Positions 2,872 to 57,522 of a stretch of 64,000 nt of DNA are shown here, piece by piece (the stretch's first letter is position 1; each line of letters opens with the position of its first letter). The translations under genes were made by a program, and so were the position numbers. The notes below the pieces were generated by a model that was not told the origin of the DNA, made no database searches, and was given only the letters and a program-made list of their open reading frames with translations. This DNA comes from Candidatus Melainabacteria bacterium (GTDB lineage: Bacteria > Cyanobacteriota > Vampirovibrionia > Gastranaerophilales > Gastranaerophilaceae): the NCBI GenBank assembly GCA_022009935.1, contig CP091731.1, positions 1,222,212-1,286,211 on the forward strand, in the 5' to 3' direction.

Positions 2872-3129
2872 ATGGTAAACTATTTTACGAATTGCAAAAA
2901 CGAAACAGAATTAAAAGCAACTTACAAACAACTTGTTAAGAAGTACCACCCGGACATTTACGGAGAAAAAGGCAACGAAATTTTAAAAGAAATTCACAAT
3001 CAACTCGAAAAAGCCGTTAAAACTGCTATAAAAGACAGAAACACATTTTTTTCTGATTATATTAATACTGATATAGCGGAAACTCCGGAAGAGTTGGAAC
3101 GTAAAAAAAGAATTATTGCAAGAGGCTAA
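2872..3129 (+). CDS. J-domain (DnaJ-like) protein
   Basis: ELKATYKQLVKKYHPDIYGEKGNEILKEIHNQ contains the HPD tripeptide of J domains. GAGGA SD. Confidence 0.7.
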   Translation: MVNYFTNCKNETELKATYKQLVKKYHPDIYGEKGNEILKEIHNQLEKAVKTAIKDRNTFFSDYINTDIAETPEELERKKRIIARG

Positions 3130-16102: not shown

Positions 16103-17180
16103 ATGACAAAACCAAAAAAAGAAAAAATAACAGGCTATAAAGTTTTTTAACCACGATTGGACTTGTCGAGGTTTCAAGTATGAAATTGGCAAAACTTATA
16201 CACACGAAGGTGAAATATCCTTGTGTAAAGAAGGTTTTCACTTTTGTAAAAATTTAATGGATTGCTTTGAATTTTACGATTGTGTAACTTGGAACAAAAT
16301 TGCCAAAGTTGAAGCCTTAGGAGAAGTCAAAACAGACGATAAAAAATGCGTAACAAACAAGATAAAAATATTAGAAGAAATACCACTTGACAAAATTGGG
16401 GAGTATGTTCAAACTGATTTAAATACTGCTGTCAACGAGTCTTATGGTGTTAACCAGTCTAATGGTGTCAATTTGTCTGATGGTGTCAATTTGTCTGATG
16501 GTGTCAATTTGTCTAATGGTGTTAACGAGTCTGATGGTGTTAACCAGTCTAATGGGGTTAACTGTTCTGATGGTGTTAACTATTCTTATGGGGTTAGCAG
16601 GTCTAATGGTGTTGACGAGTCTTATGGCGTTAACCAGTCTAATGGTGTCAATTTGTCTGATGGTGTCAACGGGTCTTGTGGTGTCAACGGGTCTTGTGGT
16701 GTTAACAGGTCTGATGGTGTTAACAGGTCTTATGGTGTCAACGGGTCTTGTGGTGTTAACGGGTCTTGTGGTGTTAACAGGTCTTATGGTGTTAACTATT
16801 CTTATGGCGTTAACTGGTCTAATGGTGTTAACTTGTCTTATGGAATATTAAACTCTTATGGAGTTTCAAATGCTTTATTTTTAGCAAACAAACCACAAAC
16901 ATACACAATTTTTGGTAAAAATGTAACAAAAGAAAAGTTTAATGAAGTTTGGCAAATATTTCATAAAAAGCTTAACGGCTGGACACCAACATTTAACAAT
17001 TTAAAAAGTTTATACCTTAAATCCAGTTCTGATTGGAAATTGACCCCAATACCAAACGCAGAAGAGATAAGCAAAAAAGAAGCTTGGAGAAGTATGCCCA
17101 AAGAAGCCATTGAGTATATCAAATCACTTGAAGAGTTTGATAAGGATATGTTTGAAGAGATTACAGGAATTGAGGTATAA
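16103..17180 (+). CDS. phage protein with Cys/His N-terminal domain (DUF7666-like, from memory) and about 20 tandem 7-residue GVNxSxG repeats; one frame change near the start
   Basis: MTKPKKEKITGYKVF(N)HDWTCRGFKYEIGKTYTHEGEISLCKEGFHFCKNLMDCFEFYD, then NGVNLSDGVNLSDGVNLSNGVNESDGVNQS..., then a non-repetitive C-terminus. Confidence 0.6.
16431..16866 (+). repeat. 21-nt coding tandem repeat, about 20.8 units
   Basis: GGTGT(T/C)AAC-NNN-TCT-N(A/G)T periodicity. Variation is concentrated in two codons per unit. Confidence 0.9.
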
Positions 17181-18215: not shown

Positions 18216-19687
18216 ATGAAAAAAGTAGTTATTTATGCAAGAGTCTCCTCCAAACGACAAGAGGAAGAAGGGTATTCCATCCCGGCACAATTAAAATTTT
18301 TAAATGAATATGCAGCTAAAAAATGGTTTTGCAGTAGTCAAAGAATTTATAGATAGTGAAACCGCAAAAAAAGCCGGCCGCACAAATTTTAACGAAATGA
18401 TTAATTTTTTAAAAAGAATAGAACTGTAAACGCAATACTTGTAGAAAAAACGGATAGACTCTACCGCAATTTTAAAGACTACGTTTTGCTTGATGAATTT
18501 AAAAACCTAGAAATCCATTTAGTCAAAGAAGGTGGGATTATAAGCGAAAATTCCCGCTCACATGAAAAATTAGTGCATGGCTTTAAGGTATTAATGGCCA
18601 AAAATTATATCGATAATCTATCCGAGGAAATAATGAAAGGGCAGAAACAAGCCTGCGAACAAGGAGATTATCCCAGCAAACCACCTTATGGGTATTACCG
18701 ACCTAAAAAACAAATTTTAATCGACCCTAAAACATCAGGATACGTTCTAAGAGCTTTTAATTTATACTCCGAAGGCAATATATCTTTGGATGATTTATGT
18801 CAAAAAATGTTTAATGAGGGGTTTGTATATAGCGAAATAAGCCCCAAAATTCATAAAAAGTCAATTGTCAAAAATACTTAAAACCCTTTTTTATACGGGA
18901 AATTTTTTGTACAAAAATGTATTATACAAAGGTCGGCATGAGCCTTTAATCAGCATGGGTTTATTTGAAAAAGTGCAACTTGCTTTTAAAAAGACGGCAA
19001 GCCTGAAACACGCAGAAAACATCAATTTATTTATTCAGGTCTTTTTACATGTGCAAAATGTGGCTCGGCTATTGTTGGCGAAATAAAAAAAGGCAAATAT
19101 ATTTATTATCATTGTGCTGATAAAACCAAAAACTGTCCAAATAAAGGTATAAGCATAAAACAAGAGCAACTTGATAAGTATTTTGAGGAGTCGATTAAAA
19201 GAATTCAAATAACGCCCCAGCATAAGAAAGCTATTGTGGAAGCTTTAAAAGAGAGTCATAAAGATGAAGAAGAATATAATAAGTCTGAAATATTAAGGCT
19301 TACAAATAGGGCGGAGGTGCTTCGTAGCCGATTATCAAAAATATATGTTGATAAATTAGATGGTAAGATATCAGAAGATTTTGGGTTGAGAAAAATAACG
19401 AGTGGACGTTGGAGCATGCCAAAATTTTACGAGAAATTGAAGCGCATTCAAAAGCAAACGTGAATTACATGGCACAAGGCGCAAATCTGGTAGAACTTCT
19501 CGAAAACCTTTACACACACTACATTGAGCTCGACGACGCAGAAAAAACAAAAATACTAAAATATATCTTCTCGAACTTTTTGATAGACGGCCGAAACGTA
19601 AGCTATGAGTACGAAAAACCCTTTGACATTTTCGCCAAAGGACTGTCTCGTCTATTAAACTGGAGGATAGGAGATTCGAACTCCTGA
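18216..19687 (+). CDS. large serine recombinase (integrase), several frame changes
   Basis: MKKVVIYARVSSKRQEEEGYSIPAQ (catalytic Ser region), VEKTDRLYRN, recombinase domain PPYGYY, zinc-ribbon FTCAKCGSAIVGE...YYHC, coiled-coil C-terminus. The last 27 nt overlap tRNA-Ala in antisense. Confidence 0.8.
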
Positions 19688-19733
19688 CCCCCTGCGTGCA
19701 AGGCAGGTGCTCTACCAGCTGAGCTAATCCCCC
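19661..19733 (-). tRNA. tRNA-Ala (anticodon UGC)
   Basis: GGGGGATTAGCTCAGCTGGTAGAGCACCTGCCTTGCACGCAGGGGGTCAGGAGTTCGAATCTCCTATCCTCCA. Cloverleaf with a G3:U70 pair. CCA is not encoded. Confidence 0.9.
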
Positions 19734-19755
19734 AAGGAATTCACTTACATGTTTA

Positions 19756-19811: not shown

Positions 19812-20395
19812 TTTTTATATAAACCTAGCACAAAAAAAAACAAAGAAGTCCAATGGCTGACACTGCTTTATCTATAGACTTATGTCACAAGTTGCTTGAT
19901 TTTTTCTTTTTTTATATAAACCTAGCACAAAAAAAAACAAAGAAGTCCAAACTTGACTCTTCCTTGTTTTTTCGACTTTCTTAGCTAAATCTTTGCTTTT
20001 CTTCTTTTATATAAACCTAGCACAAAAAAGCAAAGAAGTCCAATGGCTGACACTGCCTTATCTATAAACTTATCCCACAAGTTGCTTAGATTTTTCTTTT
20101 TTTATATAAACCTAGCACAAAAAAAAACAAAGAAGTCCAAACTTGACTCTTCCTTGCTTTTTTCGACTTTCTTAGCTAAATCTTTGCTTTTTCTTCTTTT
20201 ATATAAACCTAGCACAAAAAAAACAAAGAAGTCCAAACTTGACTCTTCCTTGCTTTTACGACTTTCTTAGCTAAATCTTTGCTTTTCTTCTTTTATATAA
20301 ACCTAGCACAAAAAAAAACAAAGAAGTCCAATGGCTGACACTGCTTTATCTATAGACTTATGTCACAAGTTGCTTAGATTTTTTCTTTTTTATAC
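19812..20395. repeat. tandem array C: six 94-97-nt units with a common head and two alternative tails (order a-b-a-b-b-a)
   Basis: TATATAAACC unit starts at 19816, 19913, 20008, 20103, 20200 and 20294. The common head is TATATAAACCTAGCACAAAAAAAAACAAAGAAGTCCAA. The tails copy gene 3' ends (see findings). Confidence 0.9.
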
Positions 20396-20921
20396 CTTAG
20401 TCTTGTTGAAAGGTTGGTTATTGCACAAACAAAAAATCCCATAACACCAATACTAAACATAAATGGAATTAATGTTATTAACGATTTTTGCTTGATAAGT
20501 TTCTTATATTCATTTTTATATCTGTATTATTTTTGTCTGCAAGATTTTTTAGCTAATTTATTAAGTTCTGTAAATTTTACGACTTCTAAATCATTTTTAA
20601 GTGTTTCTTTGCATTTGCCGTTTTTTTTCAATATACGCTTAAATCCATTTTCAAAAAGTTCACTTCCCGATATAACATACAATCCGACAATCGGGTAACG
20701 AAAAGTGTTTCTATAAAATTTTCTTTCCCACGGTCATAAGCAGCACCAAAATATCCTAATCCCCTATTAATACACAAGATGTCAACTGTCCTTTGCTCAA
20801 ATTCAACTTTCCGTTTTCACTTGTATAATCAATACAAAAATATTTATTTATAAAATTTTTATATTTTTATTATTTTTGAAATTTTATCACCAGGTGAAAG
20901 TATAAATTCAGAAATATTCAT
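20374..20921 (-). CDS. hypothetical protein with C-terminal membrane helix, several frame changes
   Basis: ATG at 20921 overlaps the upstream stop (TAATG). Fragments are MNISEFILSPGDKISKII..., GLGYFGAAYDRGKENFIETLF..., ...LIPFMFSIGVMGFFVCAITNLSTRLRYKKEKI*. The stop at 20374-20376 lies inside the last array unit. Confidence 0.35.
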
Positions 20922-21536: not shown

Positions 21537-21811
21537 ATTTTTTCCTTTTTTGTTAAAACTAAAAAACCTGTACATAAAGTGCAGGTTTAATTTATATTAA
21601 AATATAACAAATGTTACTACAGCCTGCACAATAATTATGCCAAGCTACGCCAACTTTTATTGATTTTATACATTACATTACTCATACTTTTATTATAATA
21701 GCAAATAAATATTATTCAATACCTATTTTATATTTATTAAGTTTTTTAAAAGCATAATTAATAAATCTGTCGAATTTAGAAATTCGACTAAAAACTAAGA
21801 CCTATTCTAAT

Positions 21812-22380
21812 ACATGCTTGTCTTCACTTCATCGTTCCAAATTATTGACAACTTTTTAAATAACGGACTTTGTGCGTCCAACAATTTGACTTTATCCACC
21901 AATGTGAATTGACTTTTGTTTGATTATAGCGTTGAAGTTCAATTAATACTTTTGTTAAACATTTTTTGTTTTTTCCGCCTGGGGCAGCGGATTCTACCCT
22001 AAAGGGCACCCTCCCTTGTACGGCTCGATTGCCATCTCGCCTACAAGAGGAGCTGTTGGTAGGGCGGAGTCGAGCGTTAGCGAGCGAGCCCGTAACAAAA
22101 CTAAAACAATGATTAGACTAAGAATTTAAAAAACGGGCTGCAATATAAAAAAAATCCGCTGGAGTGGAGCCTTGAAAAGGCGAAACGGAATGCAAGGATT
22201 GCGCTAAGCCAAATAATTTGGTATAACTAATTTTGAACAAATAACAACCCGACGTAATCCAAGAATCTGCCCTCATTTTATTCGGGCATCTGTCCTACGG
22301 CGGATTTTTTTATATACATGATGGGGACGGCTTCGCCGTCCCCACACTGCAACCCTCTTTGACATTCATAACTGAAAGTG
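21812..22380. repeat. non-coding mosaic of repeat modules (L, family-A core, GC-rich hairpins, K, M, H1)
   Basis: Modules are shared with 26126-27060 and 60224-60388: L 21812-21852, A-core 21897-21968, long GC hairpin 21975-22068, K 22153-22202, M (reverse) 22248-22303, H1 22323-22343. Confidence 0.8.
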
Positions 22381-22386
22381 TGGAAT

Positions 22387-22439: not shown

Positions 22440-24572
22440 TTAGTTAAATCTTTGCTTTTCTTCTTCTGAAACACCTTTGATTGTCAAATTGACACGACCT
22501 TTGTCATCGATTTTAATAACTTTGACAATAACTTCATCGCCAATAGACAATTTGCTTTCAACGGTTTCAATACGTTCATTTGCAACTTGAGAAATATGCA
22601 CCATACCGTCTTTTCCGGGGGCAAGCTCAACAAAAGCTCCGATTGGTATAATTCTTACAACTTTTCCACGGCGAACCATACCCTCAACCGGTTTAAAAGT
22701 CGCATCTTCAATCATACGCATTGCTATATTAGCACCCTCGGCATCATTGCTTGTAATTGTAACATGTCCGTCATCTTGTATATCAATTTCAGCACCGCTA
22801 CATTCAATAATATTTTTAATATTTTTGCCTCCCGGACCAATAACAACACCAATATCATCAACATCAATGTTCATTGAATAAATGCGAGGTGCAAACGGTG
22901 ACATCTCTTTAGCAGGTTCAGTTATTACTTCACGCATTTTGCCAAGAATGTGCAAACGACCTTCTTTAGCCTGGTTTAAAGCTTGACGCAAAGTTTCATT
23001 GCTTATGCCTTTCACCTTCATATCCATCTGTAAAGCAGTAATGGCTTCGTCATTACCTGTAACCTTAAAGTCCATATCGCCCAAAAAGTCTTCAATACCT
23101 TGAATATCAGTCAGTACAACAGTTGCATCATCTTCTTTGATTAATCCCATAGCAACTCCGCCAATCATACATTTAACAGGAACACCCGCATTCATTAAAG
23201 CCATTGAGCTGCCACAAGTTGAAGCCATAGAAGTTGAACCGTTTGATTCCAAAACATCAGATGTAACACGGATTGTGTAACCAAATTTGTCCATATCAGG
23301 CAAAGCAGGAACATTTGCACGTTCAGCCAAGTTTCCATGACCTATTTCACGACGTCCCGGGCTTCTCAATGCCTTTACTTCACCTACTGAAAACCCAGGG
23401 AAAATGTACTTGTGCATATACGTCTTTTTAGTCAATGGGTCAACACCATCCAATTCAAGTGCCATTGAAGGTCCTGCAAGTGTTGCAACAGAAAGAACTT
23501 GAGTTTGCCCACGAGTGAATACGGCTGAACCATGAGCACGAGGAATTACCCCAACTTCACACCAAATCGGTCTGACTTCTGTTATTTTACGTCCGTCTGC
23601 ACGAACTCCCTCATCGATAATCATTCGACGCATTATTTTCTTTTCCAAATATTTAAACTCTTCAGCTATAAAATCAATGCCCGATTCATTTATCATTTTA
23701 TTTATTTCATCTTCTTCGCCTAAGGCTGCAACTTTTTCCTTAACAAGCGTTTTAGCTTCTTCAAGCTTATTTTGACGGTACTCACGGTCAAAATTATGAT
23801 AAGCATCATAAATCATATCATAAGCTGTTTCTTTTATTATTGAAGCCAAACGACTTGTGTCATAAGGATTTACAAATTCAGGTTTTTCAACCCCACACAT
23901 TTTAGCAAATTCAATTTGTGCTTGAACTTGTTTTTTATCTCAACTTGAGCAAACTCAACTGCGTGCATAATGTCATCTTCGGTCACAAAATTGCAACCGG
24001 CTTCAACCATAATAACACTGTTTTCAGTACCTGCAACAACTATATCCAAATCAGATTCTTTTGATTGTTGGTGAGTCGGGTTTGCAATATATTCACCATT
24101 AATACAAGCTACACGAACGGCACCGATAGGGACCTTCAAACGGAGCTTCTGTCAACATCAATGCAAATGAAGCACCCAACATTGCAAGAGTATCTGCTTG
24201 GTTTTCTTGGTCATAACTCATAAGTTGAGCCACGATTTGAACATCATTTCTATATCCTTTAGGAAATAAAGGACGAATTGGTCTGTCTATCAATCTTGAT
24301 ATTAATATAGCTTTTTCACTCGGACGTCCTTCATTTTTGGTAAATCCACCGGGAATTCGTCCAATAGCTGACATACGTTCTTCATAATCAATAAGCAACG
24401 GGAAAAAATCAATACCTACACGTGGTTCTTTTGCAACTGTTGCATGCACAAATAACATTGTATCACCACAACGTATTGTTACAGAAGAGCTTGCACTTCT
24501 TGCATATTTCCCTGTTTCTACTTCAACAACTTTTCCACCTATGGTAAGTTGTATTTTTTTACTTTCAACCAT
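22440..24572 (-). CDS. pnp: polyribonucleotide nucleotidyltransferase (PNPase), two frame changes
   Basis: Three ORF-track fragments (24099-24572, 23870-24139, 22440-23900) give a colinear PNPase: two RNase PH domains, KH, and S1 (GKVVRIIPIGAFVELAPGKDGMVHISQVA). One break is at the T6 run 23931-23936. Confidence 0.9.
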
Positions 24573-25240: not shown

Positions 25241-26002
25241 ATGATAAAGAAAAAAATATTAAGTATTATTTTATTAGTTATATTATGTTTTACGCTAAAT
25301 CCGATTGCTGTTTTGGCAAATGAATATGATAATGATGGGGATTCTAACGGTTATGACCCTGTTGAGTTTAAATTTGAACATATAAACAATGGAAAAACGT
25401 CATCGCCAATGGATTTAATAAAAGTAACAGATGACGGCACACGAGTTATTGTTAAGAATAACCTTATCCCTATTGCCTTTAACGACCATTTTACGACTAA
25501 GAAATACAAGGATTTAAATGTAGTCGAGTTTTACATCCCTTGTGATATAACAACGAATAATGCAAAATGCTTAATTCCTGCCAAATCACTTGTTTTAGGT
25601 GAAATAAGCTGTATACAACAACCCAAATGGGGTAATCGTAATGCAAAAGTTTATATTACTTTAAAAAAGCTTATCTTCCCAAATGGGCGCCAGTTTGATA
25701 TATGCGCTAAACCATATGAAAATGGTGGTGTTTTGAAAAAAAGTGGTTGGACAAATTTTGGAAAAGCGGCAGCATATACAGTTGGCGGTTTTGGATTAGG
25801 AGCCGGTAACGGTGCTTGGATTGGGGCTTGTGCAGGCAACGCTTGGACAGGCACTTGGTTGGGCATGGCTATTGGCGGTGGCGCCGGGCTTTTGCTTGGA
25901 CTTTTTACACCGGGAATGCATTATAAGGCAAAAAAAGGTAAAGTCATTTATATGCGACTCTGTGAAGATATTATTATATCTCCTGATTGTTGTTGCGACT
26001 AA
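25241..26002 (+). CDS. secreted hypothetical protein with C-terminal glycine-zipper segment
   Basis: Intact 253 aa. Signal-like N-terminus KKKILSIILLVILCFTLNPIAVLA. C-terminal GGFGLGAGNGAWIGACAGNAWTGTWLGMAIGGGAGLLLGL. Confidence 0.6.
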   Translation: MIKKKILSIILLVILCFTLNPIAVLANEYDNDGDSNGYDPVEFKFEHINNGKTSSPMDLIKVTDDGTRVIVKNNLIPIAFNDHFTTKKYKDLNVVEFYIPCDITTNNAKCLIPAKSLVLGEISCIQQPKWGNRNAKVYITLKKLIFPNGRQFDICAKPYENGGVLKKSGWTNFGKAAAYTVGGFGLGAGNGAWIGACAGNAWTGTWLGMAIGGGAGLLLGLFTPGMHYKAKKGKVIYMRLCEDIIISPDCCCD

Positions 26003-26040
26003 ACAAAGAATTTGAAGTGAAATAAAATAAATTGATTTCA

Positions 26041-26125
26041 TTCACCATTGTGGATTGATTTTTGTTTACTTTTTGCGTTGAAGTCCAATTATTTTATTTT
26101 CCTCCAAATACTTTGTTTTAGTTTT
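26041..26125. repeat. single family-A repeat unit (degenerate)
   Basis: CACCATTGTGGATTGATTTTTG...GCGTTGAAGTCCAATTATTTTATTTTCCTCCAAATACTTTGTTTTAG, followed by TTTTATATGACGGGCT. Confidence 0.75.
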
Positions 26126-26514
26126 ATATGACGGGCTGCGGATTCGTCGTTGGCCGTCTTGGATTTCTTTCTAGCTCACAGAGCCGTGCCTTATGTGCCT
26201 TGCACAAGCCGGCACGGTCTGTTCGCTCCCCGGACTACGCCCGTTCAGAAATCCGCTTGCCTGATTGTGAGGAGAAAAGCGTTGCATCCGTGCGGAGCTT
26301 TAGACGAGGAAGCGACCCAGCTTCCGAGTATAAAGCGAAGTAGTTAATGACCGCCGTAGGAAAGACGACCGAATGAAATGAGGGCGGATGCCCCAGGCGG
26401 TAAAAAGCGTAAGCCGTGCGTAAAACAAAGCCAAAACGGCTCAGTTTTGGATTTGTTTGTAGCAGTTAATAGGCGACGGCGGATTCGCAGTTGGCCTTGC
26501 CTGATTGTGAGGAA
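26126..26514. other. GC-rich non-coding segment with long imperfect hairpins and module M copy A
   Basis: Much higher GC than the flanks. Extended hairpin 26167-26212 (AGAGCCGTGCC...GGCACGGTCT). M at 26351-26400. TTGCCTGATTGTGAGGA is repeated at about 26258 and 26497. The ORFs here have no SD and implausible composition. Confidence 0.6.
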
Positions 26515-26812
26515 CTGAACGGAGTGAAATAATTTTGTAAAAAAATTATGAAACGGAGTTGCATAGTTCCGAACGCTGCGTAATCCAAGATAAAAGAGTT
26601 TTCTTCGAAAACTCCACAGGAGCGAAAACTGAACGGAGTGGAACAATTTTGTAAAAATTGTGAAACGGAGTTGCATAGTTCGAACGCTGCGTAATCCAAG
26701 ATAAAAGAGTTTTCTTCGAAAACTCCACAGGAGCGAAAACTGAACGGAGTGGAACAATTTTGTAAAAATTGTGAAACGGAGTTGCATAGTTCCGAACGCT
26801 GCGTAATCCAAG
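26515..26812. repeat. 2.7 tandem units of 114/111 nt, each with two perfect 7-8 bp hairpins
   Basis: CTGAACGG unit starts at 26515, 26629 and 26740. Hairpins are ACAATTTT-GTA-AAAATTGT and GAGTTTTC-TTC-GAAAACTC. Unit 1 has the compensated variant ATAATTTT...AAAATTAT. Confidence 0.85.
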
Positions 26813-27060
26813 ACATGCTGTCTTCACTTCATCGTTCCAAATTATTGACAACTTGCAATCCTGCATTCCGTTTCGCCTTTTCAAGGCTACACTCCAGCGG
26901 ATTGCTGCGAACTTACGTGCTGGGTGTGCTGACGCACACACGGCGCACTAGTCAAAATTTGGCTAACCACGGCGGATATTATTTAATGCAGGGGGACGGC
27001 AAAGCCGTCCCCCTGCACCCCTTGGATATTCACAACTAAAAATGTGGAAAACAGAGCCAA
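26813..27060. other. GC-rich mosaic segment (modules L, K inverted, H1)
   Basis: L at 26813-26854 (same as 21812-21852). K at 26855-26905 (reverse complement of 22153-22202). H1 hairpin at 26988-27016, preceded by CCACGGCGG plus an AT spacer. Confidence 0.7.
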
Positions 27061-27096
27061 ACAAATGAGTGAACATTTCACGGGTTGCAAGGGGTT

Positions 27097-27371
27097 TTAT
27101 ATAACGGGCTAACGCGTGACAACTGATGCAGTCATTCACCAACGTGGATTGACTTTTACTTAATTATAGCGTTGAAGTCCAATAATGCTTTTTGTTAAGC
27201 ATTTTTGTTTTAGTTTTATATGACGGGCTAACGCGTGACAACTGATGCAGTCATTCACCAACGTGGGTTGGCTTTTGCTTAATTATAGCGTTGAAGTCCA
27301 ATTATTTTATTTTCCTCCAAATACTTTGTTTTAGTTTTATATAACGTGCCGTGGAATAACTAATTTTCACA
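27097..27371. repeat. family-A tandem units (2.3 copies) abutting the ispG stop
   Basis: TATATAAC / TATATGAC starts at 27097, 27217 and 27338 (120-121 nt period). The core is CACCAACGTGGATTGACTTTT...GCGTTGAAGTCCAAT. Confidence 0.85.
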
Positions 27372-28429
27372 CTACTTCAAACCAACAAGATAATTAGTAA
27401 GTATTGCTTCAAACTCGTTTAATAAATCTTCTTCTTTTACTTTTTTAATTATCTCGCCTTTTTTAAAAATATAACCTTCACCAATACCGCCTGCAATTCC
27501 AAAATCAGCATGTCTGGCTTCTCCCGAGCCATTGACGGCACATCCCATAACCGCAATTGTCAAAGGAGTTTTTATATTTTTAAATCTTTCCTCCACTTTG
27601 TGAGCAAGGTCAATCAAGTTTATTTTACACCTGCCACAAGTAGGGCAAGAGATAAAATTTATACCTTCATCACGAAGTTTTAAAGCTCGTAGTATATTAA
27701 ACCCTGCATAGACTTCTTCAATAGGGTTTTCACTTAGCGAAACACGTATTGTATCACCTATACCGTCAAGCAAAAGCGGTGAAAATGCAAGAGATGATTT
27801 TATTAGACCGTTTTTAAAGTACCTGCTTCTGTCAAGCCCAAGTGTAGCGGGTAATCTACTTTTTTGTCAATAAGCCTGTATGCTTCAATTGTTGTTTTAA
27901 CATCAGAAGATTTTAAAGACACTTTTATTTGGTCAAAATCGTTATCTTCTAATATCTTTATGTGTTCCATTGCCGACTCAACCATTTTTTCTGCAAGCGT
28001 TAAATCGTCACGGTTTGCATATTTTTTATCCAATGACCCCCCATTTATCCCGATACGGATTGGAATGTTGTGTTTTTTTGCACATTCGACAACTTTTTTA
28101 ACATTCTCTTCTTTTCCAATATTCCCAGGGTTCAATCTCAAAGCATCAACACCCATATCAATAGCGGTTAAAGCAAGCCTATAGTCAAAATGAATATCCG
28201 CAACAATTGGTATTGGTGATTTTTTCTTTATATCTTTCAAAGCGCTTGCCGCATCTTTATTTAAAACAGCTAAACGTATTATTTCACAACCGGCTTCGCT
28301 TAATTTAAAAATTTGGTTTAAAGTAGCGTTAACATCACAAGTATTTGTCGTACACATTGATTGGACAGCTATTTTATTTCCGCCACCGATTTTTACATCA
28401 CCTATTTTTATTACCTTTTTCATAGCCAT
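27372..28429 (-). CDS. ispG: 4-hydroxy-3-methylbut-2-en-1-yl diphosphate synthase (IspG/GcpE), one frame change
   Basis: Fragments 27803-28429 and 27372-27773 are colinear: ...HLGLTEAGT / GIGDTIRVSLS...CPTCGRC...GCAVNGSGEA. The break is at the T5/A3 run 27811-27818. Confidence 0.9.
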
Positions 28430-29269: not shown

Positions 29270-29901
29270 ATTGTTTTATCCTTTTTCATTGTTAAGTATA
29301 ACACAAAAAAAGGTTGACTTTTTAGTGTCAACCTGAAGTAAAATAGTTTACGAGTGAGAGTGGAATATGTATTTATAGAATTATTATAGACATTTAAAAT
29401 GGTATTCAAATTCCCCTATTGTTTAGATTGTTTTTCCACATAGGCTATTATACTTTTATAAAATATTAAGAAATTGTAATAATTTAATAAATATTCTAAA
29501 GTTTTTGAAAAAAACATGTCGTAATTAAAAATATAAATAAATAGACAATTAGGGAAAATTAATGTATAAGTCATCAAAAACAAAAATGTTAAACAACATA
29601 TCACAAGGTGTAGAATTCATATTAAGAGGTGCGAAAAAAAGGCGGTCAATGGCTATAGCAGAAGCAAAAGCAGTGAACAATCAAAATTATAAATTGCAAA
29701 AAAAGCCATCTTATCGCTATTAAATAAAAGAATGAGAGTGTCAGTTTTTTTAATTTTATCTTTTAGGTTTCAAAAATATTTTATTTTGGAACCTTTTTTG
29801 TTGTTAAATTTTCGTAACAATTAATTTACATTGTTTCATATATTTATTTATCTGGTAAAATAATTTATATAAGTATTCATGTATATTAATTGTTTATAAA
29901 T

Positions 29902-32900
29902 ATGTTTGAAAATAATGAGGATAATGATAATTTAAATGAGTTTCTAAATGACGATAACTATAACTCGTCAGATACAGAAAAAATAATAAATGCCGTTTCT
30001 AAAGTTGAAGTCGGTATAATTTCTGCAGTTGCAGGTTTTTTTGAAAATATTTCCTTTATTGAAGAAACTCAAGCCATTGAAGATAATATAACTATAAACA
30101 CTTTAAACGTTATAAATGAAATTCAATCCTTGCGTGAAATTCTTATTAAACTGCCTTCAATAAAAAATATTAATTCAAATAGTGAAACTAATGACAACCA
30201 AAGTGAAGTTATTGAAAAATTAAATAATATTATTGAAACTTTAAAAGCTGTTTCAAACAGACCACAAGCACCTATTGAACCTAAAATAAATATTAATATT
30301 AATGAAGCATTAAAACCTTTAAATCAACAATTAGAGTCAATTAATTCTTATATAAATGAAATAAATTCACAAATCCAAACTTTAAAAGCACAAAATACAG
30401 AAAATATTTTAAATAAAGAAAATATAGAAGAAATTTGTAATGTTACCGAGGCAAATGGCAGTAATGGCAATATAATTGAGTCTTTAAATTTTCTTAATAA
30501 AAACCTTAGTCAAAAATTGCAAGAGGTGAAAAGCTTTGTCCAAAGCGAAAATAACAACAAACAAATTAGTGATTCTTTAAGCAATCTTAACCAAAACTTA
30601 CAAGAGGTGAAAAGCTTTGTCCAAAGCGAAAATAACAACAAACAAATTAGTGACTCTTTAAGCAACCTTAACCAGAACTTGCAAGAGGTGAAAAGCTTTG
30701 TCCAAAGCGAAAACAAAAACCAAGAAATTTGCGATTCTTTAAGCAACCTTAACCAAAACTTACAAGAGGTGAAAAGTTTTGTTCAAAGCGAAAACAAAAA
30801 CCAAGAAATTTGCGATTCTTTAAGCAACCTTAACCAAAACTTACAAGAGGTGAAAAGCTTTGTTCAAAGCGAAAACAAAAACCAAGAAATTTGCGACTCT
30901 TTAAGCAATCTCAACAATAATTTGCTTGAAATAAAGGATATAGTTGACACATACGAAAGTCAAACATGCGATAGGCTTAGCAATGATATACAAAATCTAA
31001 TAAAAGCTATTGAAATTAATGAAGATATTTATAACAATCAAACCCAAAATGATATTTTTGAAGCGTTAAATACTCTAAACAGTAAAATTAGTATAATTAC
31101 ACACACATATAATGAAACTGATGAAAATGACGTAAAAAACTTATTTGTAAGTATTGACGAAATTATAAATCATCTAAATTCACTTGATTTAAATATTAAT
31201 ACTATAGAGCAAAACCAAAATTCAATTGATGTAAAATATGAACTTGATAGTTTAAAAGAAGAACTTTCACAAATTATTGACGAAAAAACATCCCTTGTTG
31301 ATGAAAACCAAAGCTATAACGTTAATGAAATATTGACTGCTATAAACAATATAAAAGATAATATATCAAATTTAGATGATAAAATTAATGATGAAAGCAA
31401 AAATGAACAAGATGTCGCTTTTCGTGAAGAAATAAAAACAAATTTGACAAAATTATCACAACTTGTCGAGTATTCTTCCTCAACATCTTCAAGTACAATC
31501 CAAAACGAAATAAAAGAAGTCAAAGATACAATTATTGAATCCGTTGCCGGATTTTTTGCAAACTTTAATTTTGAAGAAGAACAAGAAACAATACAAAATT
31601 TTATTGTTGAAAATAAAAATGATATAAATGACAAACTAAACCAAACATTTATAAAACTTGATGAAAAATTAACACCAATTACATCAACAATACAAAACAT
31701 TGATATACTTAAAGAAAACGTAAGTCGCATTAACGAAATATTTTCAAAATCATCTAATGAATTGGATGACAACAATGACACATACAATTATACTTTTATC
31801 GACCTTGAAAATGATATTATAAAACTCAATATGATGTTGAATGATTTAACAACATCATTAAACCAAAATTTAGACGAAAACAAAACTACAATAAAAAATG
31901 AATTATCCAATGTAACAGAAATAGTAGAGTCATTCAAAAACGAAAATACGTCTTTCATTAAAGACGAAATATCAAACTTGTCCTCGGTTGTTGAGTCAAC
32001 AAATGATGACATTTCAAGCATTTCGAAACGAACAAATAAACTTATAATCTTAGCCGATGAAGCACAAAATGCTTATAATAATAATGTTGAAAAATTCAAA
32101 AATCTTACATCACAAATAATTGCTCAAATCAACAATCTTACAAAATTAGGACAGGATTTTTCAAATATAATAAACAAACAAAACCTAACATTAAACAATA
32201 TTAACAATCTAAACGAAGCTTTTATATACCTTGGAACTTGGATTGATGAAGTTGATGTAGTATTTAAAAATATACAAGAAAACGTTAAAACAACGGTTAA
32301 AAACGAAGATTTAAACCTTGTTCGTGTATCGGTTGAAGATAGGCTTAATAGCATTGAAAATGTTGTTTCAAATATTGAAAACTCCATAAATGATATGACG
32401 TTAAAACTTAATTCTTATGAAGAAATAAATGTTAATGTCGAAGATAAAATAGGCAGCTTTGATGAAATATTTGAAAATATTGAAAACAATATTAACGATA
32501 ATAACTTTAAAATAAATAATTTAAGCGAACAAATCGCTGATGTTGAAAATTCGTTTAATAATAATCTTATCTCAAAACTTGATAGGGTTAATGAAGTTAT
32601 TGAAGAACTTCAAAATTCATACGAAGAAACAAACAACAGCATCAATGAAAAAATTGAAACCATTGAGAATAATCTTAATAATAATGGTGATTATAGCGAT
32701 AAATTCAATGAAATTCTTGAAAAATTAAAAGAAAATGAAGAAAAGAATAACGAAATATCAAGAAAATTAGAAGAAAAAGAACAACTTTTTGAACAAATGA
32801 AAAACGATATGGACAATGTTCACAAGCTTAATGCCAAAGTTAACGGAATTGAAGATGTAATTTTACGCCTTGATAAAAAAATAACACGGATTGTTAATTA

Positions 32901-32916
32901 TATTGATGAAGACTAA
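29902..32916 (+). CDS. giant Asn/Glu/Ile-rich coiled-coil protein (about 1000 aa), hypothetical
   Basis: Single uninterrupted 3-kb ORF (track 29890-32916; ATG at 29902). Heptad-like low-complexity sequence with an internal 27-aa repeat block. Confidence 0.7.
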   Translation: MFENNEDNDNLNEFLNDDNYNSSDTEKIINAVSKVEVGIISAVAGFFENISFIEETQAIEDNITINTLNVINEIQSLREILIKLPSIKNINSNSETNDNQSEVIEKLNNIIETLKAVSNRPQAPIEPKINININEALKPLNQQLESINSYINEINSQIQTLKAQNTENILNKENIEEICNVTEANGSNGNIIESLNFLNKNLSQKLQEVKSFVQSENNNKQISDSLSNLNQNLQEVKSFVQSENNNKQISDSLSNLNQNLQEVKSFVQSENKNQEICDSLSNLNQNLQEVKSFVQSENKNQEICDSLSNLNQNLQEVKSFVQSENKNQEICDSLSNLNNNLLEIKDIVDTYESQTCDRLSNDIQNLIKAIEINEDIYNNQTQNDIFEALNTLNSKISIITHTYNETDENDVKNLFVSIDEIINHLNSLDLNINTIEQNQNSIDVKYELDSLKEELSQIIDEKTSLVDENQSYNVNEILTAINNIKDNISNLDDKINDESKNEQDVAFREEIKTNLTKLSQLVEYSSSTSSSTIQNEIKEVKDTIIESVAGFFANFNFEEEQETIQNFIVENKNDINDKLNQTFIKLDEKLTPITSTIQNIDILKENVSRINEIFSKSSNELDDNNDTYNYTFIDLENDIIKLNMMLNDLTTSLNQNLDENKTTIKNELSNVTEIVESFKNENTSFIKDEISNLSSVVESTNDDISSISKRTNKLIILADEAQNAYNNNVEKFKNLTSQIIAQINNLTKLGQDFSNIINKQNLTLNNINNLNEAFIYLGTWIDEVDVVFKNIQENVKTTVKNEDLNLVRVSVEDRLNSIENVVSNIENSINDMTLKLNSYEEINVNVEDKIGSFDEIFENIENNINDNNFKINNLSEQIADVENSFNNNLISKLDRVNEVIEELQNSYEETNNSINEKIETIENNLNNNGDYSDKFNEILEKLKENEEKNNEISRKLEEKEQLFEQMKNDMDNVHKLNAKVNGIEDVILRLDKKITRIVNYIDED
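30520..30924 (+). repeat. 5 x 81-nt near-identical coding repeats
   Basis: CAAGAGGTGAAAAGCTTTGTCCAAAGCGAAAA... starts at 30520, 30601, 30682, 30763 and 30844. It encodes LQEVKSFVQSEN(N/K)N(K/Q)(Q/E)I(S/C)DSLSNLNQN. Confidence 0.9.
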
Positions 32917-33789: not shown

Positions 33790-33963
33790 ATGGAAGCAAT
33801 AAAAAACTTTTTTATGGAAATATTAATGCTCAAAGAAGAAACAAAAACTCACATTGGTCTTTCAAGTTTCAAGTCAAAAAAAAGCTATAAAATAACTGAG
33901 CCCAAAATAGCTAAAAATAAAAAAGATATAAAACTATCGGACTTAATGAAAGGTAATCTTTAA
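33790..33963 (+). CDS. small hypothetical protein (57 aa)
   Basis: [57 protein letters not shown]. Below the track cutoff and convergent with prfA. Weak call. Confidence 0.2.
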
Positions 33964-35047
33964 GCTTCAATTTGAGATAATTTTTCAAGTTTGAGTTTTT
34001 GGTCGTGTTGAATAAGCAACTCAAGCAAGTCATCCAAATCGCCATCAATAGCGGTCCAAACATTTAAATTTTGTCCTATACGATGGTCAGTCAAACGTCC
34101 TTGAGGGAAGTTGTAAGTTCTGATACGTTCAGAGCGGTCACCTGTACCAACTTGTGAGCGTCGAAGGTCAGTAATTTCCTGCATTTGTTTTTGAACTTCC
34201 ATATCATAAAGCTTAGCTTTTAATATTTGAATAGCACGCTCTTTATTTTGAAGTTGCGATCTTTCTTCTGTACAAAATACCATTAAATTTGTAGGCTTGT
34301 GAACTACACGAACGGCTGTTTCAACCTTGTTTACATTTTGTCCGCCTGCACCACCTGAACGACAGGTTGATATTTCCAAATCATTTGGGTTTATTTCCAC
34401 TTCAACATCATCAACTTCAGGCATAACAGCAACAGTAGCTGTAGATGTATGCACACGTCCTTGTGATTCCGTTTGAGGTACCCTTTGCACACGGTGAACT
34501 CCTGATTCATATTTTAAACGTGAATAAACAGCGTTACCACGTATTGAAACTACAACTTCTGAAAACCCACCGGCTTCACATTCTGTTTTTTGAAAGTATT
34601 TGTGTTTGCCAACCCATTTTGTCTGCATATTTTAAATACATTCTCAACAAATCACCGGCAAAAATGTTTGCCTCATCACCACCGGCTGAACCGCGAATTT
34701 CCAACATAATATCCTTGTCATCCATTGGGTCACGCGGAAGCAAAAAGAACTTTCATCTTTTCTTCATACTCTTGAATTTTCTTTTCGTTTGTTTCTATTT
34801 CTGATTTCAAAAAAATCTCTCATGGTTTCATCAGTTTCACCTTTTAGAAGTTCATTTGCATCTTTTATTGCTTCATCAGCTTCTTTAAATCGGTTATAAA
34901 GATTAACTGTTTCTTCCATTGATTTTCGCTGTTTTGATAAATCACGAAATTTGTTATAATCCGCTATTGTCTCAGGTTTTGACAATATCTCACCAAGTTC
35001 ATTATATTTTTTTCTATATCAAGTATTTTATCTAACATTTCTTTCAT
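33960..35047 (-). CDS. prfA: peptide chain release factor 1, at least three frame changes
   Basis: [29 protein letters not shown] (PxT type, hence RF1 not RF2). [21 protein letters not shown] (GGQ). N-terminus [13 protein letters not shown](K)[20 protein letters not shown]. Confidence 0.85.
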
Positions 35048-35092: not shown

Positions 35093-36232
35093 TTATTCTT
35101 TTTTAGCATCTTCTTTTAGCTGAACAGGCATAATCAAACAAACATAATCATCATCATTAATAGGAGTGAACATTGTCGCAGACAAGCTTCCATTCAAACC
35201 TATCTGTATATTTTCACTATCCATATTCTTTATTGATTCTATAATATACTTGTAATTAAAGGCAATATCAAGGTCATCATCTTGATATTTTATTTCAATT
35301 TCATCATTAGATTTCCCTTCTTCAGGAGTTTGTGCAAGCATTTTTAGCTTATTATGTATAAAACTAAACTCGATGATACTTGTTCTGTCACTCACCATAG
35401 TTGAGACGCGATCTAAGGCGTTTAAAAATTCTTCCCTATTAACTATAGCATTCTTAGGAAAACTCTTCGGGATAAGCTGGCTATAGGGCGGAAAATCGCC
35501 TTCTAATAATTGACTCTCAAGTACAAAATTTTCGGTTTTGAATAAAACTTTTTACCTTCGATATTATTACTTTTACTTTTTTATCCTCGGTTATTTGGCA
35601 AATACGTGCAAATTCGTTGAAAGCTTTTGAAGGGATAATAATAGTTATGTCTTCTTCAATATCTTTCTCAGCTATTGGCTGAATAAGCCTTGTTAGTCGG
35701 TTTCCATCTGTCGCAGCCATTTCTATGTTGTCTTTTCTAACTTTTGTAATTACACCGCTTATCACATTTCTGCTTTCCGGAGATGCACAAGCAAATACCG
35801 TATGCTCTATCCCTTTTATTAACGGCTCTGTTTCTATATCAAATTCATTTACCTGATAAATATCACGAAAGACTTTTGGAAAATCTCCAGATTCCATACT
35901 TATCACTTCAAACTTTGTACTTCCGCAGCTAATTTGCATAATTTGTGTTGATGAGTCAAGCTCAAAAAAGTATTGGTTTGTCCGGCAATTTATTCACTAT
36001 TTCTATAAGCTTTTTTGCCCCCATTGTTGTTGCACCTGCAACTTCAACACTTGCAACCTGTGTTGTTTCAACTGACATATCCATATCTGTTGAGGTTAGT
36101 TTTATTTTATTATCTTCACACGCTTCTATTAATATATTTGATAATATTGGATTTATCCCACGCATTGATGCTATTTTTTCAACGACTTTTTAAACGGTTT
36201 AGTAAATACCCTTTTTCTATTGAAAATTTCAT
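35093..36232 (-). CDS. dnaN: DNA polymerase III beta sliding clamp, at least two frame changes
   Basis: MKFSIEKGYLLNRLK... / MRGINPILSNILIEACEDNKIKLTSTDMDMSVET / ...SCGSTKFEVISMESGDFP...AATDGNRLT / ...LNGSLSATMFTPINDDDYVCLIMPVQL. Confidence 0.85.
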
Positions 36233-37324: not shown

Positions 37325-37729
37325 GGGGACGCTTTTGGATTTGACAGGGCGATTGTTGCATTTAAATTGCGAGTCGAAGCGCTGTTCTTCGTAAAAACGA
37401 GCAAATTAAAATAAACGCTACAGATAATGTTGTAGTTGCTGATTTTTCACGTGCTCGCGCACGTAAAGCTGCTTAATCAAAATAGCAGTTCAGCCACCTC
37501 AATTTGTCCAGCTTGCCGATAGTTGGGGTAAATTATGCAAGTTGCGGTTGTTTGTTTAAAGGGCATTCAGCTTAAGTTTTTTCCTTTAAGCTTGTAAACA
37601 GCTTATAATTTACTTTAAGTTATCCTAAGTTTGAAAGTTTGACATTATAACTTGAACTCTAAACTTTACACACTCGTAGAGGTTTAAGTGTTACCGTTTT
37701 GGACGTGGGTTCGACTCCCACCGTCTCCA
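37325..37729 (+). ncRNA. ssrA: tmRNA (SsrA)
   Basis: 5' GGGGACGCTTTTGGATTTGACAGGG and 3' GGACGTGGGTTCGACTCCCACCGTCTCCA form the tRNA-like domain. Candidate tag frame 37417-37473 reads (A)ATDNVVVADFSRARARKAA, then TAA. Confidence 0.9.
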
Positions 37730-37756
37730 GTTTATGACTTAAAATCAAAGTTAATA

Positions 37757-57372: not shown

Positions 57373-57522
57373 AGTTTAACTCCTCTCAAATATAGTAACA
57401 TATAAAGCAAACTATAGCAATAAAATGTCCTGTTTCACCAACATGGATTAAGTTAAAAATTGAACATGCGGTAGTCCGTTATAAAAAAATTTAATATGAG
57501 TTTACTCTGGAACATAAAAATT

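Follow-up and report, generated by a model that had tools for sequence, protein, structure and literature searches.

The GC-rich block of 960 nt at positions 26137–27096 of the window (the whole 64-kb stretch of DNA that was analysed) is most probably an undescribed mosaic of repeats related to the intergenic REP/BIME type; a single large gene for a structured RNA is improbable. Its modules (P, b, M, a terminator-like palindrome, the 76/111-nt unit, L, K and H1) are part of a system of repeats with many copies in the genomes of gut Gastranaerophilales. With a probability of about 0.6, we read the block as a BIME/NIME/BOX-like intergenic mosaic of hairpin repeats that was reshuffled by recombination and slippage and whose hairpins probably work as terminators or insulators. 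The preliminary description of this DNA had left a choice between a ‘large composite structured RNA locus’ and a ‘nest of non-autonomous elements’. The second option agrees with our data: the modules are dispersed, they occur in different orders, and the block as a whole is present, absent or rearranged between flanks that are 99.2–99.4% identical (window locus compared with strains L066 and L067). The first is not supported: Rfam gave no match at the gathering score, and the unit is not conserved as a whole (homologous pieces of the block in L067 are 85–89% identical versus 99.4% for the adjacent genes).

The block is a chain of about ten hairpin modules in the spacer between two convergent genes, a secreted-protein gene and ispG. 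Its GC content is 0.39–0.565 (0.49–0.565 at the ends and 0.39–0.425 in the central tandem array), compared with 0.2–0.38 in the flanking genes and 0.315 in the window. The earlier claim of a GC content far above the AT-rich surroundings with no credible ORF was borne out by this profile and by a Pfam scan of six ORFs of the block (71–155 aa, both strands), which produced no significant match; the lone match, to ANF_receptor, was sub-threshold (17.6 bits versus a cut-off of 25.4). No tRNA or tmRNA was found in the block. As to the recurrence of protein-coding sequences, the ‘proteins’ of the ORF clusters, the IS1-like element aside (MSSGRGSFYAKAAQ...), are another repeat module in translation and not genes. 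The region is indeed dense in hairpins: compared with dinucleotide shuffles, a 971-nt stretch folded with z = −7.28 on the + strand and −5.12 on the − strand. Ten terminator-like sites were detected where 3.4 were expected, eight of them in the block. Of the 960 nt, 99.2% are covered by paralogous copies that lie at other sites of the genome or in sister Gastranaerophilales. Frameshifts and homopolymer-length differences with respect to 99%-identical strains are frequent in the window (pnp, ispG, atpA, dnaN and prfA), so single-base details of its sequence are unreliable.

Family-A units border the block on its two sides, as the preliminary description had it. Directly 3′ of the stop codon of the secreted-protein gene lies an inverted partial copy of the 3′ part of an A-unit (26001–26040), which could pair with 26079–26118 into an AT-rich stem of 40 bp (inverted repeat I1; the arms are 83% complementary and 38 nt apart). 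Unit A1 (26041–26136; direct-repeat families D2, D10 and D11) makes the left boundary; it ends in box TTTATATGACGGGC (26123–26136) and is identical to the sole A-unit of the empty-site strains L003 and L066. The right boundary is formed by units A2 and A3 (27094–27349) with boxes at 27096–27109, 27215–27228 and 27336–27349, and right after them, at 27372, comes the 3′ end of ispG. The box sequence TTTATATAACGGGC has 15 matches in the window versus 0.77 expected. The A-unit end box TTTTATATRACGGGC, in copies of the same orientation, bounds A-units, the block of the window and the block of L067; similarly, CAAGGAAGGGTTATATAAAA bounds 91-nt units as well as a cassette made of H1 and M, and CCCCGTCCGGAGGACRTTAAA bounds the units of the sister species. 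In general, the arrays around the modules consist of AT-rich 91–122-nt units with a conserved end box, and the block itself is one oversized ‘unit’ within an A-unit array. A role of A-units as sigma-70 promoters is doubtful: the TGgTAGAAT of the atpE-proximal unit is not kept in other units, including the atpE-proximal unit of L061, and a promoter consensus scan showed no notable excess (19 matches versus 11.6 ± 3.5).

All motifs listed in the preliminary description are present, some of them shifted by 4–10 nt from the positions given there. The block opens with a junction motif, GCGGATTCGTCGTTGGCC, at 26138–26156 (second copy at 26479–26497), for which GCGGATTC matches were found; the repeat GCGGATTCG..GTTGGCC is real and starts at 26138 and 26479, not at 26134 and 26474. 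Module P (26157–26256) is a long imperfect hairpin in the minimum free energy structure, with an outer stem GGATTTC/GAAATCC, a middle stem CACAGAGCCGTGCC/GGCACGGTCTGT at 26177–26222 (the ‘extended hairpin’ formerly placed at 26167–26212) and an inner stem TGTGC/GCACA. Copies of P in MAG BRZ_DS__bin68 (bin68) are ~75% identical, and in them changes on both sides preserve the inner and outer stems, namely TGTGC/GCACA to TGAGC/GCTCA and GGATTTCT/AGAAATCC to GGATTTGC/GCAAATCC. It is the only module with 8-nt inverted termini, and these termini belong to its own stem. A short repeat, CTTGCCTGATTGTGAGGA, follows at 26257–26274 and returns at 26496–26513 (TTGCCTGATTGTGAGGA starts at 26258 and 26497, exactly as claimed); L010 and L067 have this joint too. 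The ‘b-module’ (26276–26350), with hairpin GCTTTAGACGAGGAAGC/GCTTCCGAGTATAAAGC at 26297–26336, is one of two alternative modules located 5′ of motif M; it precedes 9 of the 55 M copies, and its copies in MAGs bin68 and UMGS1657 are 88–96% identical.

Downstream of M lies a palindrome, AAACAAAGCCAAAAC/GTTTTGGATTTGTTT, at 26423–26458 (inverted repeat I5, 93% complementary), with a run of As before it and a run of Ts after it on both strands; the terminator scan matches 26431–26450 on both strands. By its sequence, this palindrome looks like a bidirectional intrinsic terminator. The 111-nt tandem array was confirmed at 26513–26813 (2.7 copies with 96% matches by TRF). Its unit combines a 76-nt core, which carries hairpin ACAATTTTGTAAAAATTGT, with a second hairpin, GAGTTTTCTTCGAAAACTC; a compensatory change in a hairpin of the unit turns ATAATTTT/AAATTAT into ACAATTTT/AAATTGT. 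In L031, L045, L047, L051 and L067 the core is also present, but only once and next to different sequences (84–96% identity). Modules L (26804–26854) and K (26855–26905) recur as had been noticed, L as a 92% identical copy at 21803–21854 and K as an inverted, 96% identical copy at 22202–22153; in rearranged strains a K-like sequence stands 3′ of the secreted-protein gene. The least-repeated segment (26906–26968), with a small hairpin GTGTGC-tgac-GCACAC at 26924–26939, has a single paralogous match (L033, 83%). Finally, the H1 module (26969–27092; inverted repeats I6 and I15) consists of a reversed truncated head of M (ACGGCGGAT), an AT spacer, the hairpin H1 proper, which proved to be a perfect 14-bp GC palindrome at 26987–27017, and a small-hairpin tail. 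Its copies were found at 22297–22385 and in L011, L022, L041 and L053. Neighbouring modules share short joints (GCGGAT, AATCCAAGA and GCCCGTYATATAAAA; CCCCGTCCGGAGGAC in the sister species). The hexamer GCGGAT, present at 23 sites in the window, six of them within the block, recurs at many module joints.

Motif M, located at 26351–26400 precisely as first described, is a 50-nt nested hairpin followed by a run of As. The outer (CCGCC/GGCGG) and inner (CGCCC/GGGCG) stems enclose a conserved 11-nt loop; an unpaired GTAG at nt 6–9 is invariant except for GTGG in two variants. Three stem pairs show compensatory changes in the alignment of copies; informative G-U versus A-C variants are too few for a call of the functional strand. 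The conserved loop and the GTAG suggest a specific recognition of M. Two more copies are present in the window, at 60295–60344 (+) and 22303–22265 (−), which gives three copies in these 64 kb. In three Gastranaerophilales genomes M occupies 46 loci; copies with the exact pattern were counted in bin68 (44), HGM07904 (6), UMGS1657 (2) and the window (3). Outside Gastranaerophilales no copy was found among 185,579 species representatives, and both M and the boundary motif of the sister species are absent from 2.9 million viral contigs. M was never seen inside an ORF. Among 24 fully resolved contexts, 15 lie between convergent genes and two between divergent ones; tandem contexts have no orientation bias. 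M of the sister species has no U-tract. Most M copies are preceded by H1-type perfect GC palindromes of 10–14 bp, whose loops are TTT (17), AAA (10) and TTC (6), a pattern typical of inversion of a DNA palindrome.

Comparison of loci and strains shows how variable the mosaics are. A second mosaic, at 21803–22385 downstream of pnp, is composed of L, an A-unit, K reversed, M reversed and an H1-like palindrome; a minimal H1-M cassette (60256–60354) sits inside a 91-nt repeat array in the atpH-atpA spacer. The order and orientation of modules differ between these two mosaics (21.8–22.4 and 60.25 kb), L001, L015, L033, L047 and L067. Across strains with identical AtpH the atpH-atpA spacer is 118–808 nt long and contains the H1-M cassette not at all, once or in duplicate. 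Between the secreted-protein gene and ispG, L003 and L066 have a spacer of 157 nt, L002 (A-units alone) and L007 one of 277 nt, and the window one of 1369 nt. Absence or variability among close relatives had been named beforehand, together with a lack of transcription, as speaking against the earlier interpretation; the block is missing from L002, L003, L007 and L066, and L067 has a reshuffled block of 370 nt attached to ispG. Compared with the window, L067 lacks M and the terminator palindrome, a deletion that runs from one ATTAACT microhomology to another, and has exchanged one hairpin module. Several strains lose synteny exactly at the spacer, where a HIT gene or an xerC-like gene replaces the partner gene. 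Any function of the block has to be dispensable, because strains without it evidently do well.

These observations are consistent with a mosaic that would have been built and remodelled at the DNA level rather than encoded as one RNA gene. Because no transposase or recombinase is tied to the modules, we infer the origin of new copies; we propose that dispersed copies underwent gene conversion and recombined, either by homology or by microhomology. The 2.7-fold tandem array, the varying number of A-units and the duplicated cassettes could be due to slippage during replication or to unequal crossing-over. Hairpins may be kept by selection or by a protein that recognises them, and the modules may serve as recombination hot spots at which synteny is broken. 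The mosaic would most likely act as REP-type elements do: it would terminate or insulate transcription and shield the 3′ ends of mRNAs where two genes converge, here the secreted-protein gene and ispG.

A mosaic of this kind might also be made by active mobility, a possible though unlikely explanation: M and the other palindromes would be REP/REPIN-type miniature transposons, cut and pasted as single-stranded hairpins by a RAYT, an HUH tyrosine transposase that acts in trans and has one gene per genome, and the block would be a pile-up of successive insertions. The invariant GTAG (or GTGG) beside the imperfect palindrome of M fits this scheme, as do the high copy number, the high identity within a genome and the position of the elements downstream of genes. 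So does the conservation of modules between species, 91–96% identity versus 76–88% for orthologous core genes at the DNA level, which a constraint on the sequence by a cognate protein would lead one to expect. On the other hand, a phmmer search with E. coli RayT in six frames over ~0.5 Mb of sampled loci (including surroundings of 44 M copies of one MAG) and the window returned nothing at E ≤ 10, and a regular expression for HUH/Y motifs identified no ORF in the same sequences. The GTAG of M is not terminal but has the outer stem on one side and the inner stem, 6 nt away, on the other, and the modules are joined at shared microhomologies. HUH transposition leaves no duplication; the cassettes are bounded by direct repeats of 15–21 nt belonging to array units, and recombination fits this arrangement better. 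No transposase recurs near the 55 M copies except that of an unrelated IS1-like element, the sole IS seen (675 bp, three copies in bin68), whose TIR GTTAACWTTTCATTG is absent from the window. The block is not a MITE either: a search for inverted repeats found no TIRs joining its two ends, and the flanking direct repeats are the 15–21-nt array box, not a 2–10-bp duplication.

The degree of conservation just mentioned is unlike that of passive junk; it points to selection for specific sequences, to a protein cognate to them or to a recent spread. A rather unlikely alternative is a lineage-specific system under selection at the sequence level: either a RAYT-less REP-like family recognised by some protein, or functional RNA or DNA hairpin cassettes (terminator, insulator or processing signals) swapped between promoter-like A-unit arrays at a conserved box. 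If true, this reading would account both for a conservation of the modules between species above that of housekeeping genes and for the tolerance of a cassette in the atp operon. There the cassette stands inside a transcription unit, where a strong terminator is unexpected; this counts against the terminator role that we favor within the mosaic reading, and so does the missing U-tract of M in the sister species.

That the block acts through RNA appears improbable. Under this hypothesis the A-unit would be a promoter or leader module, and transcription from it through the GC-rich modules would yield a stable ncRNA, or more than one, of dedicated function. Folding does exceed that of shuffled sequences, more so on the + strand; compensatory changes keep the stems, and the modules are strongly conserved between species. 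Moreover, the end box of the A-unit is located immediately upstream of SD/ATG at atpE and at the gene starting at 39.6 kb, so on the minus strand the block occupies the position of a gene after unit A2. Still, both strands fold well, as DNA palindromes would, M is found in either orientation relative to A-units and to transcription, the order of modules varies, the putative −10 element varies between A-units, and several strains with 99.2% identical flanks have no block at all. The Rfam search is a further argument against RNA. Rfam 15 was run at the gathering score on the whole window and in a sensitive mode on the block, the second mosaic and the mosaic of the sister species. At the gathering score the known ncRNA whose presence had been thought worth checking did not appear: no family matched the block, with OLE, GOLLD, ROOL, HEARO, raiA, ribozymes and riboswitches covered, in accord with the preliminary description, which had matched none of the first four classes. 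The best sensitive-mode matches had E-values of 0.3–10 with scores far below gathering, and the related mosaics behaved likewise. Among them, Fusobacteriales-1 (RF02920) matched the 111-nt array on the − strand with 25 bits versus a gathering score of 52.1 (E = 0.95), and the array is not a member of that family; Hammerhead_3 (E = 1.3) was at chance level, and so were the weak matches to miRNA precursors, which are due to the AT-rich inverted repeat I1.

Very improbable is a site-specific exchange, in which non-coding GC-rich cassettes would move in and out at the box (GCCCGTYATATAAAA; CCCCGTCCGGAGGAC in the sister species) by means of a dedicated recombinase, in the manner of attC, Xer or dRS3 systems. 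Direct 15–21-nt copies of the box do bound blocks and cassettes, the boundary of the sister species contains a dyad CGTCC-GGA-GGACG, and a tyrosine recombinase gene adjoins the block in one strain (L067). Yet this gene is a conserved chromosomal gene of the XerC/D type; it is absent from the window (tblastn of the L067 protein gave nothing there), and it is 89% identical in the sister species, where no block adjoins it. The boxes are ends of tandem units, for which ordinary unequal recombination suffices, and the elements occupy >40 scattered loci per genome instead of one array. The dRS3 sequence ATTCCCN8GGGAAT has no match in the window with up to one mismatch. An integron cassette array was rejected given the same scatter of blocks, with no GTTRRRY/RYYYAAC cores evident at the boundaries, and a CRISPR array given that the 111-nt units run head-to-tail without spacers and the block has no cas-like ORF. 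An assembly artefact, in which error-prone long reads would have been assembled into a chimera or a wrongly collapsed repeat, as the frameshifts and homopolymer differences might suggest, is largely refuted by the independent short-read contig L010, where the gene meets the block at the same junction and the block's initial 197 nt are 98% identical, by the related block attached to ispG in L067 and by the occurrence of modules in many independent assemblies.

If the mosaic reading is correct, GC-rich islands in AT-rich genomes of gut Melainabacteria are not to be annotated as candidate large ncRNAs. The repeats would explain why short-read MAGs of this lineage break at intergenic spacers and why near-identical strains differ in synteny. 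The spacers would then be very fast-evolving strain markers, with lengths of 118–808 nt or 157–1369 nt between genes of identical proteins. REP/BIME-like mosaics would extend to the non-photosynthetic sister lineage of Cyanobacteria, and, given that no RAYT is seen, the question arises whether the hairpin of M, strongly conserved as it is, has a protein that recognises it, and which one. A search of the literature available to us returned nothing on repeats in Gastranaerophilales or Melainabacteria.

Several known systems resemble the one described here. In Fusobacteriales-1 (RF02920), as in the 111-nt array read on the − strand, two AT-rich hairpins each follow a (C)CGUUUCAC-like single-stranded stretch; the match to the array has a 73-nt insertion versus 39 in the model. 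BOX elements of Streptococcus pneumoniae are modular repeats of the type boxA-boxB(n)-boxC. They share with our mosaics a small set of boxes, inner modules in variable tandem number, a stable predicted structure, an intergenic location and the lack of a transposase of their own; there is no sequence similarity, the module types here are far more numerous, and no fixed A-B-C order is kept. The NIMEs of Neisseria are repeat units bounded by dRS3 (PMC1797815, PMC9778887). Similarly, we see intergenic arrays of 50–150-bp units, each bounded by a conserved box of ~20 nt, that are hypervariable among strains and serve as sites of chromosomal rearrangement. Unlike NIMEs, the present modules are GC-rich and strongly hairpin-forming, their boundary sequence is unrelated to dRS3, and neither a phage nor an IS110-type recombinase was seen in association with them.

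The closest parallel is with REP/BIME, the interspersed palindromes and mosaics of Enterobacteria and Pseudomonas (PMC2817692, PMC3733652, PMC3116915). Several features set the present system apart. The modules are longer (50–110 nt versus 20–40 bp for REPs) and more diverse, lack the regular alternating orientation of BIMEs and are embedded in AT-rich tandem arrays of 91–122-nt units with an end box; the host is an uncultured 31%-GC lineage of Melainabacteria. RAYT was not found in the ~0.5 Mb sampled, and the GTAG of M is non-terminal; some REP-bearing strains have no RAYT as well (PMC3733652). A GTAG tag is the hallmark of GTAG-REPs, which occur in Cyanobacteria too, and REPs were reported mainly 3′ of genes, between convergent or co-directional ORFs (PMC3733652). 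In the present system, as in REP/BIME, GC-rich imperfect palindromes are present in high copy number, strictly extragenic, mostly 3′ of genes and between convergent genes (15 of 24 contexts of M); a GTAG, internal in our case, stands beside the palindrome of M, complementary changes keep the stems, and the palindromes cluster with further short motifs in mosaics that differ between strains in make-up and copy number.

The GC-rich block at 26137-27096 (960 nt) is not one large structured RNA but a nest of intergenic repeat modules, non-autonomous and hairpin-forming, that make up a new family of a known kind; the nest varies from strain to strain and is recombinogenic. The block lies between two convergent genes, one for a secreted/Gly-zipper protein of 253 aa (25241-26002, plus strand) and ispG/gcpE (28429-27372, minus strand, broken by a frameshift in the assembly), in the AT-rich DNA (window GC 31.5%) of an uncultured gut Candidatus Gastranaerophilales (Melainabacteria); related sequences were found only in MAGs named Gastranaerophilales. 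GC content is 0.49-0.565 at the block ends, 0.39-0.425 in the central array and 0.2-0.38 in the surroundings. A Pfam scan supported none of the ORFs in the block, and the stretch folds far more stably than its shuffles on both strands (z −7.3 and −5.1). The preliminary description of GC-rich, hairpin-dense, non-coding DNA thus holds; every motif named there is present, a few with coordinates wrong by 4-10 nt. An inverted partial A-unit makes up the first 40 nt past the stop codon of the secreted-protein gene (A-units are the family-A repeats flanking the block).

At gathering score, no Rfam family matches anywhere in the block; in sensitive mode the best match was to Fusobacteriales-1, in the 111-nt array read on the minus strand, with 25 bits where the gathering score is 52.1 (E 0.95). 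Two related mosaics likewise gave no Rfam match. Elsewhere in the window the RNA scans gave only one tmRNA and four tRNAs; the tmRNA (37325-37732, 125 bits, predicted tag ATDNVVVADFSRARARKAA) adjoins tRNA-Lys.

The modules are dispersed. In a BLAST comparison of the block with the rest of the window, modules L, K, M (a 50-nt nested hairpin) and the region of the GC palindrome H1 recur at 21.8-22.4 kb, downstream of pnp, reordered and partly inverted; a further copy of M with an H1-like palindrome is located at 60.25 kb. The M pattern CCGCCGTAGGN3GN4CCGN4AAATGAGGG, scanned over GTDB with one genome per species, matched 46 stretches, all within three Gastranaerophilales MAGs and 44 of them in BRZ_DS__bin68 (bin68, a sister species); viral contigs gave no match. 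Upstream of M stands one of two alternative modules, mostly an H1-type perfect GC palindrome and in nine copies the b-module, as in the window block; downstream, too, M has alternative partners. When the block was compared with everything fetched except orthologous loci, 952 of its 960 nt had at least one paralogous copy. Joints between modules recur at short common strings (GCGGAT, AATCCAAGA and the A-unit end box); another joint string, CCCCGTCCGGAGGAC, occurs in the sister species and at 63.19 and 63.81 kb of the window.

A further GC-rich module of ~200 nt, ‘N’ (CAACCCATACGCAG ... GCCCCGTCCGGAGGAC, closing stem CAACCCA/TGGGTTG, no match in Rfam), is found at 62985-63215 and 63610-63835. 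The sister species has multiple copies of it, and there it gives rise to a spurious conserved ‘ORF’ (MSSGRGSFYAKAAQ...). Three N copies (2290-2480, 2760-2930 and 3010-3180) and two M copies belong to a ~1.4-kb GC-rich mosaic downstream of ispG in bin68 (locus L039, 2100-3550), which differs from that of the window in module content and neighbouring gene; it may reflect the same hot spot, or ancient occupancy with turnover.

Conspecific contigs, gathered by exact flanking-protein look-up in public assemblies, have flanks 99.2-99.4% identical to the window, and their spacers between the secreted-protein gene and ispG take several forms: one A-unit (157 nt; L003, L066), two A-units (277 nt; L002, L007) or, in the window, A-unit A1, the 960-nt block and A-units A2 and A3. 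Contig L010 has the same block start as the window (98% identity over 197 nt), followed by a short-read contig end. L067 has a related mosaic of 370 nt whose pieces are only 85-89% identical to those of the window; it is devoid of M and the terminator-like palindrome, with the gap falling between two ATTAACT microhomologies, and one hairpin module is swapped for a different one known from the sister species. Synteny breaks at this spacer in six further contigs, where the gene after the secreted-protein gene is a HIT gene. Absence or variability in close relatives had been named beforehand as part of what would speak against a dedicated RNA locus; the block is absent or variable among strains with nearly identical flanks and, given also the lack of an Rfam match, the initial suggestion of a large composite structured RNA locus is not supported. 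Its counterpart, a nest of non-autonomous elements, is supported by the dispersed modules, their reordered or inverted copies and strain-dependent presence. One conspecific strain (L001, 1-4200) differs from the window ~3 kb beyond pnp, having phage genes (portal, TerL, HNH) with a HicAB pair there instead of the DNA seen in the window; this further variable region adjoins the 21.8-22.4-kb mosaic.

Every A-unit, read in the ispG sense, terminates in GCCCGTYATATAAAA. The block starts directly after one such end box and terminates in another (...CCAACGACGAATCCGCAGCCCGTCATATAAAA), the block of L067 is likewise bounded by end boxes on both sides, and no terminal inverted repeats were found at the block ends. 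Two genes, atpE and the one starting at 39.6 kb, also have the end box directly before their SD/ATG. Between atpH (60778-61323) and atpA (58609-59970), on the minus strand, is an array of 91-nt units (60100-60790), each ending in CAAGGAAGGGTTATATAAAA, a repeat of the atpA ribosome-site region; the last copy provides the atpA ribosome site. An H1-M cassette is present in one unit type. In strains whose AtpH is identical, this spacer measures 118, 307, 329, 478, 489, 519, 587 or ~808 nt, and the cassette is absent, single or duplicated. Judging by the arrays in the atpH-atpA and ispG spacers, GC-rich modules act as variant units of tandem arrays that expand, contract and swap units.

Each 91-nt unit has a perfect TTGACA-N17-TATACT on the antisense strand. 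At least seven tandem 122-nt A-type units, each with TGgTAGAAT, a GGGC-GATA-GCCC hairpin and the box, occupy 62630-64000 upstream of atpE (62372-62623, minus strand) and may be a promoter/leader repeated in tandem; across strains, the spacer between atpB and atpE ranges from 165 to 978 nt. A third array (19831-20450), adjoining tRNA-Ala (19660-19734), has two unit types with periods of ~95 and ~190 nt and only boxes AAGTCCAA and TTTTATATAA in common with the others; throughout the 64-kb window every copy of these boxes points the same way, with at most one weak two-mismatch exception (57474-57487). Tandem repeats that are coding or probably coding lie at 16370-16909 (18-nt period, ORF 16221-17180), 30421-30925 (81-nt period, 1008-aa Asn/Glu-rich ORF 29890-32916) and 47712-48402 (123-nt period).

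Many housekeeping genes are split by frameshifts window-wide, being intact in strains 99% identical, e.g. pnp (22440-24572), ispG (27372-28429), atpA (58609-59970), dnaN (~35093-35939) and prfA (~33960-34628). Homopolymer runs differ as well (e.g. GGG vs GGGGG in the 60.26-kb palindrome); the frameshifts are probably indel errors of long-read assembly rather than pseudogenes.

The hairpins are maintained. M has an outer stem CCGCC/GGCGG and an inner stem CGCCC/GGGCG; two-sided changes keep three pairs paired (CACCC/GGGTG, TGCCC/GGGCA and CGACC/GGTCG), and in one copy the inner hairpin is exchanged for another with the outer stem retained. Two-sided stem changes were also seen in module P and in the AT-rich hairpin of the 111-nt unit. 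The H1 loops read TTT (17), AAA (10) or TTC (6), with fixed orientation relative to M, and these variants are the flip-flop expected for DNA palindromes. M itself occurs in both orientations relative to A-units and to transcription; few variants are informative on the G-U/A-C asymmetry that bears on RNA- versus DNA-level selection.

Both neighbours could be resolved for 24 M copies: convergent genes flank 15 of these and divergent genes two, and none lies within an ORF; the same kind of distribution was reported for REPs (PMC3733652). A terminator scan gave 10 sites in 3.6 kb vs 3.4 expected, eight of them in the block, including a bidirectional terminator-like site (26431-26450) preceded by an A-run and followed by a T-run. 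The role of the block, if any, is probably that of terminator or insulator hairpins between convergent genes. Modules common to this species and bin68 are 91-96% identical, vs 76-88% DNA identity for core genes; pure neutrality does not explain this excess, which points to sequence-specific constraint, a cognate protein or recent spread.

When all ORFs of 100 aa or longer in the retrieved loci were clustered, no gene recurred beside the repeats apart from an IS1-like element of ~675 bp, present in at least three copies in bin68 (L037, 3784-4458; L055, 2193-2867; L023, 7073-7566) and inserted beside repeat blocks. It consists of a 149-aa InsA-like ORF (InsA match, E about 1e-9) and an InsB-like remnant within 15-nt TIRs (GTTAACWTTTCATTG). 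This element was rejected as parent of the modules: its ends are unrelated to them and do not occur in the window. A link with the xerC-like gene that ispG faces in L067 was rejected too: this recombinase gene is conserved in the chromosome, and its 89% identical counterpart in the sister species has no block beside it. In ~0.5 Mb of six-frame translations, neither a HUH...Y regex for RAYT-like ORFs nor phmmer with E. coli RayT (from NC_000913) gave a match. Three points keep their interest: the modules are unusually conserved across species, the boxed arrays extend into the atp operon, and no mobilising or recognising protein was found.

A literature search found no paper on repeats in Gastranaerophilales/Melainabacteria. 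Pneumococcal BOX elements are modular, and in this modularity they are among the closest known kinds to the block. By sequence, membership in none of these families is supported: for REP/BIME elements, the GTAG of M is not terminal and RAYT was not found in ~0.5 Mb; for neisserial mosaic elements, no dRS3 was found in the window. In kind and behaviour, however, the closest known systems include REP/BIME clusters, which are GC-rich tagged palindromes, extragenic and downstream of genes, forming strain-variable mosaics with RAYT sometimes missing (PMC2817692, PMC3733652, PMC3116915), and neisserial intergenic mosaic elements, whose units are bounded by a conserved box and which are hot spots of rearrangement (PMC1797815, PMC9778887).
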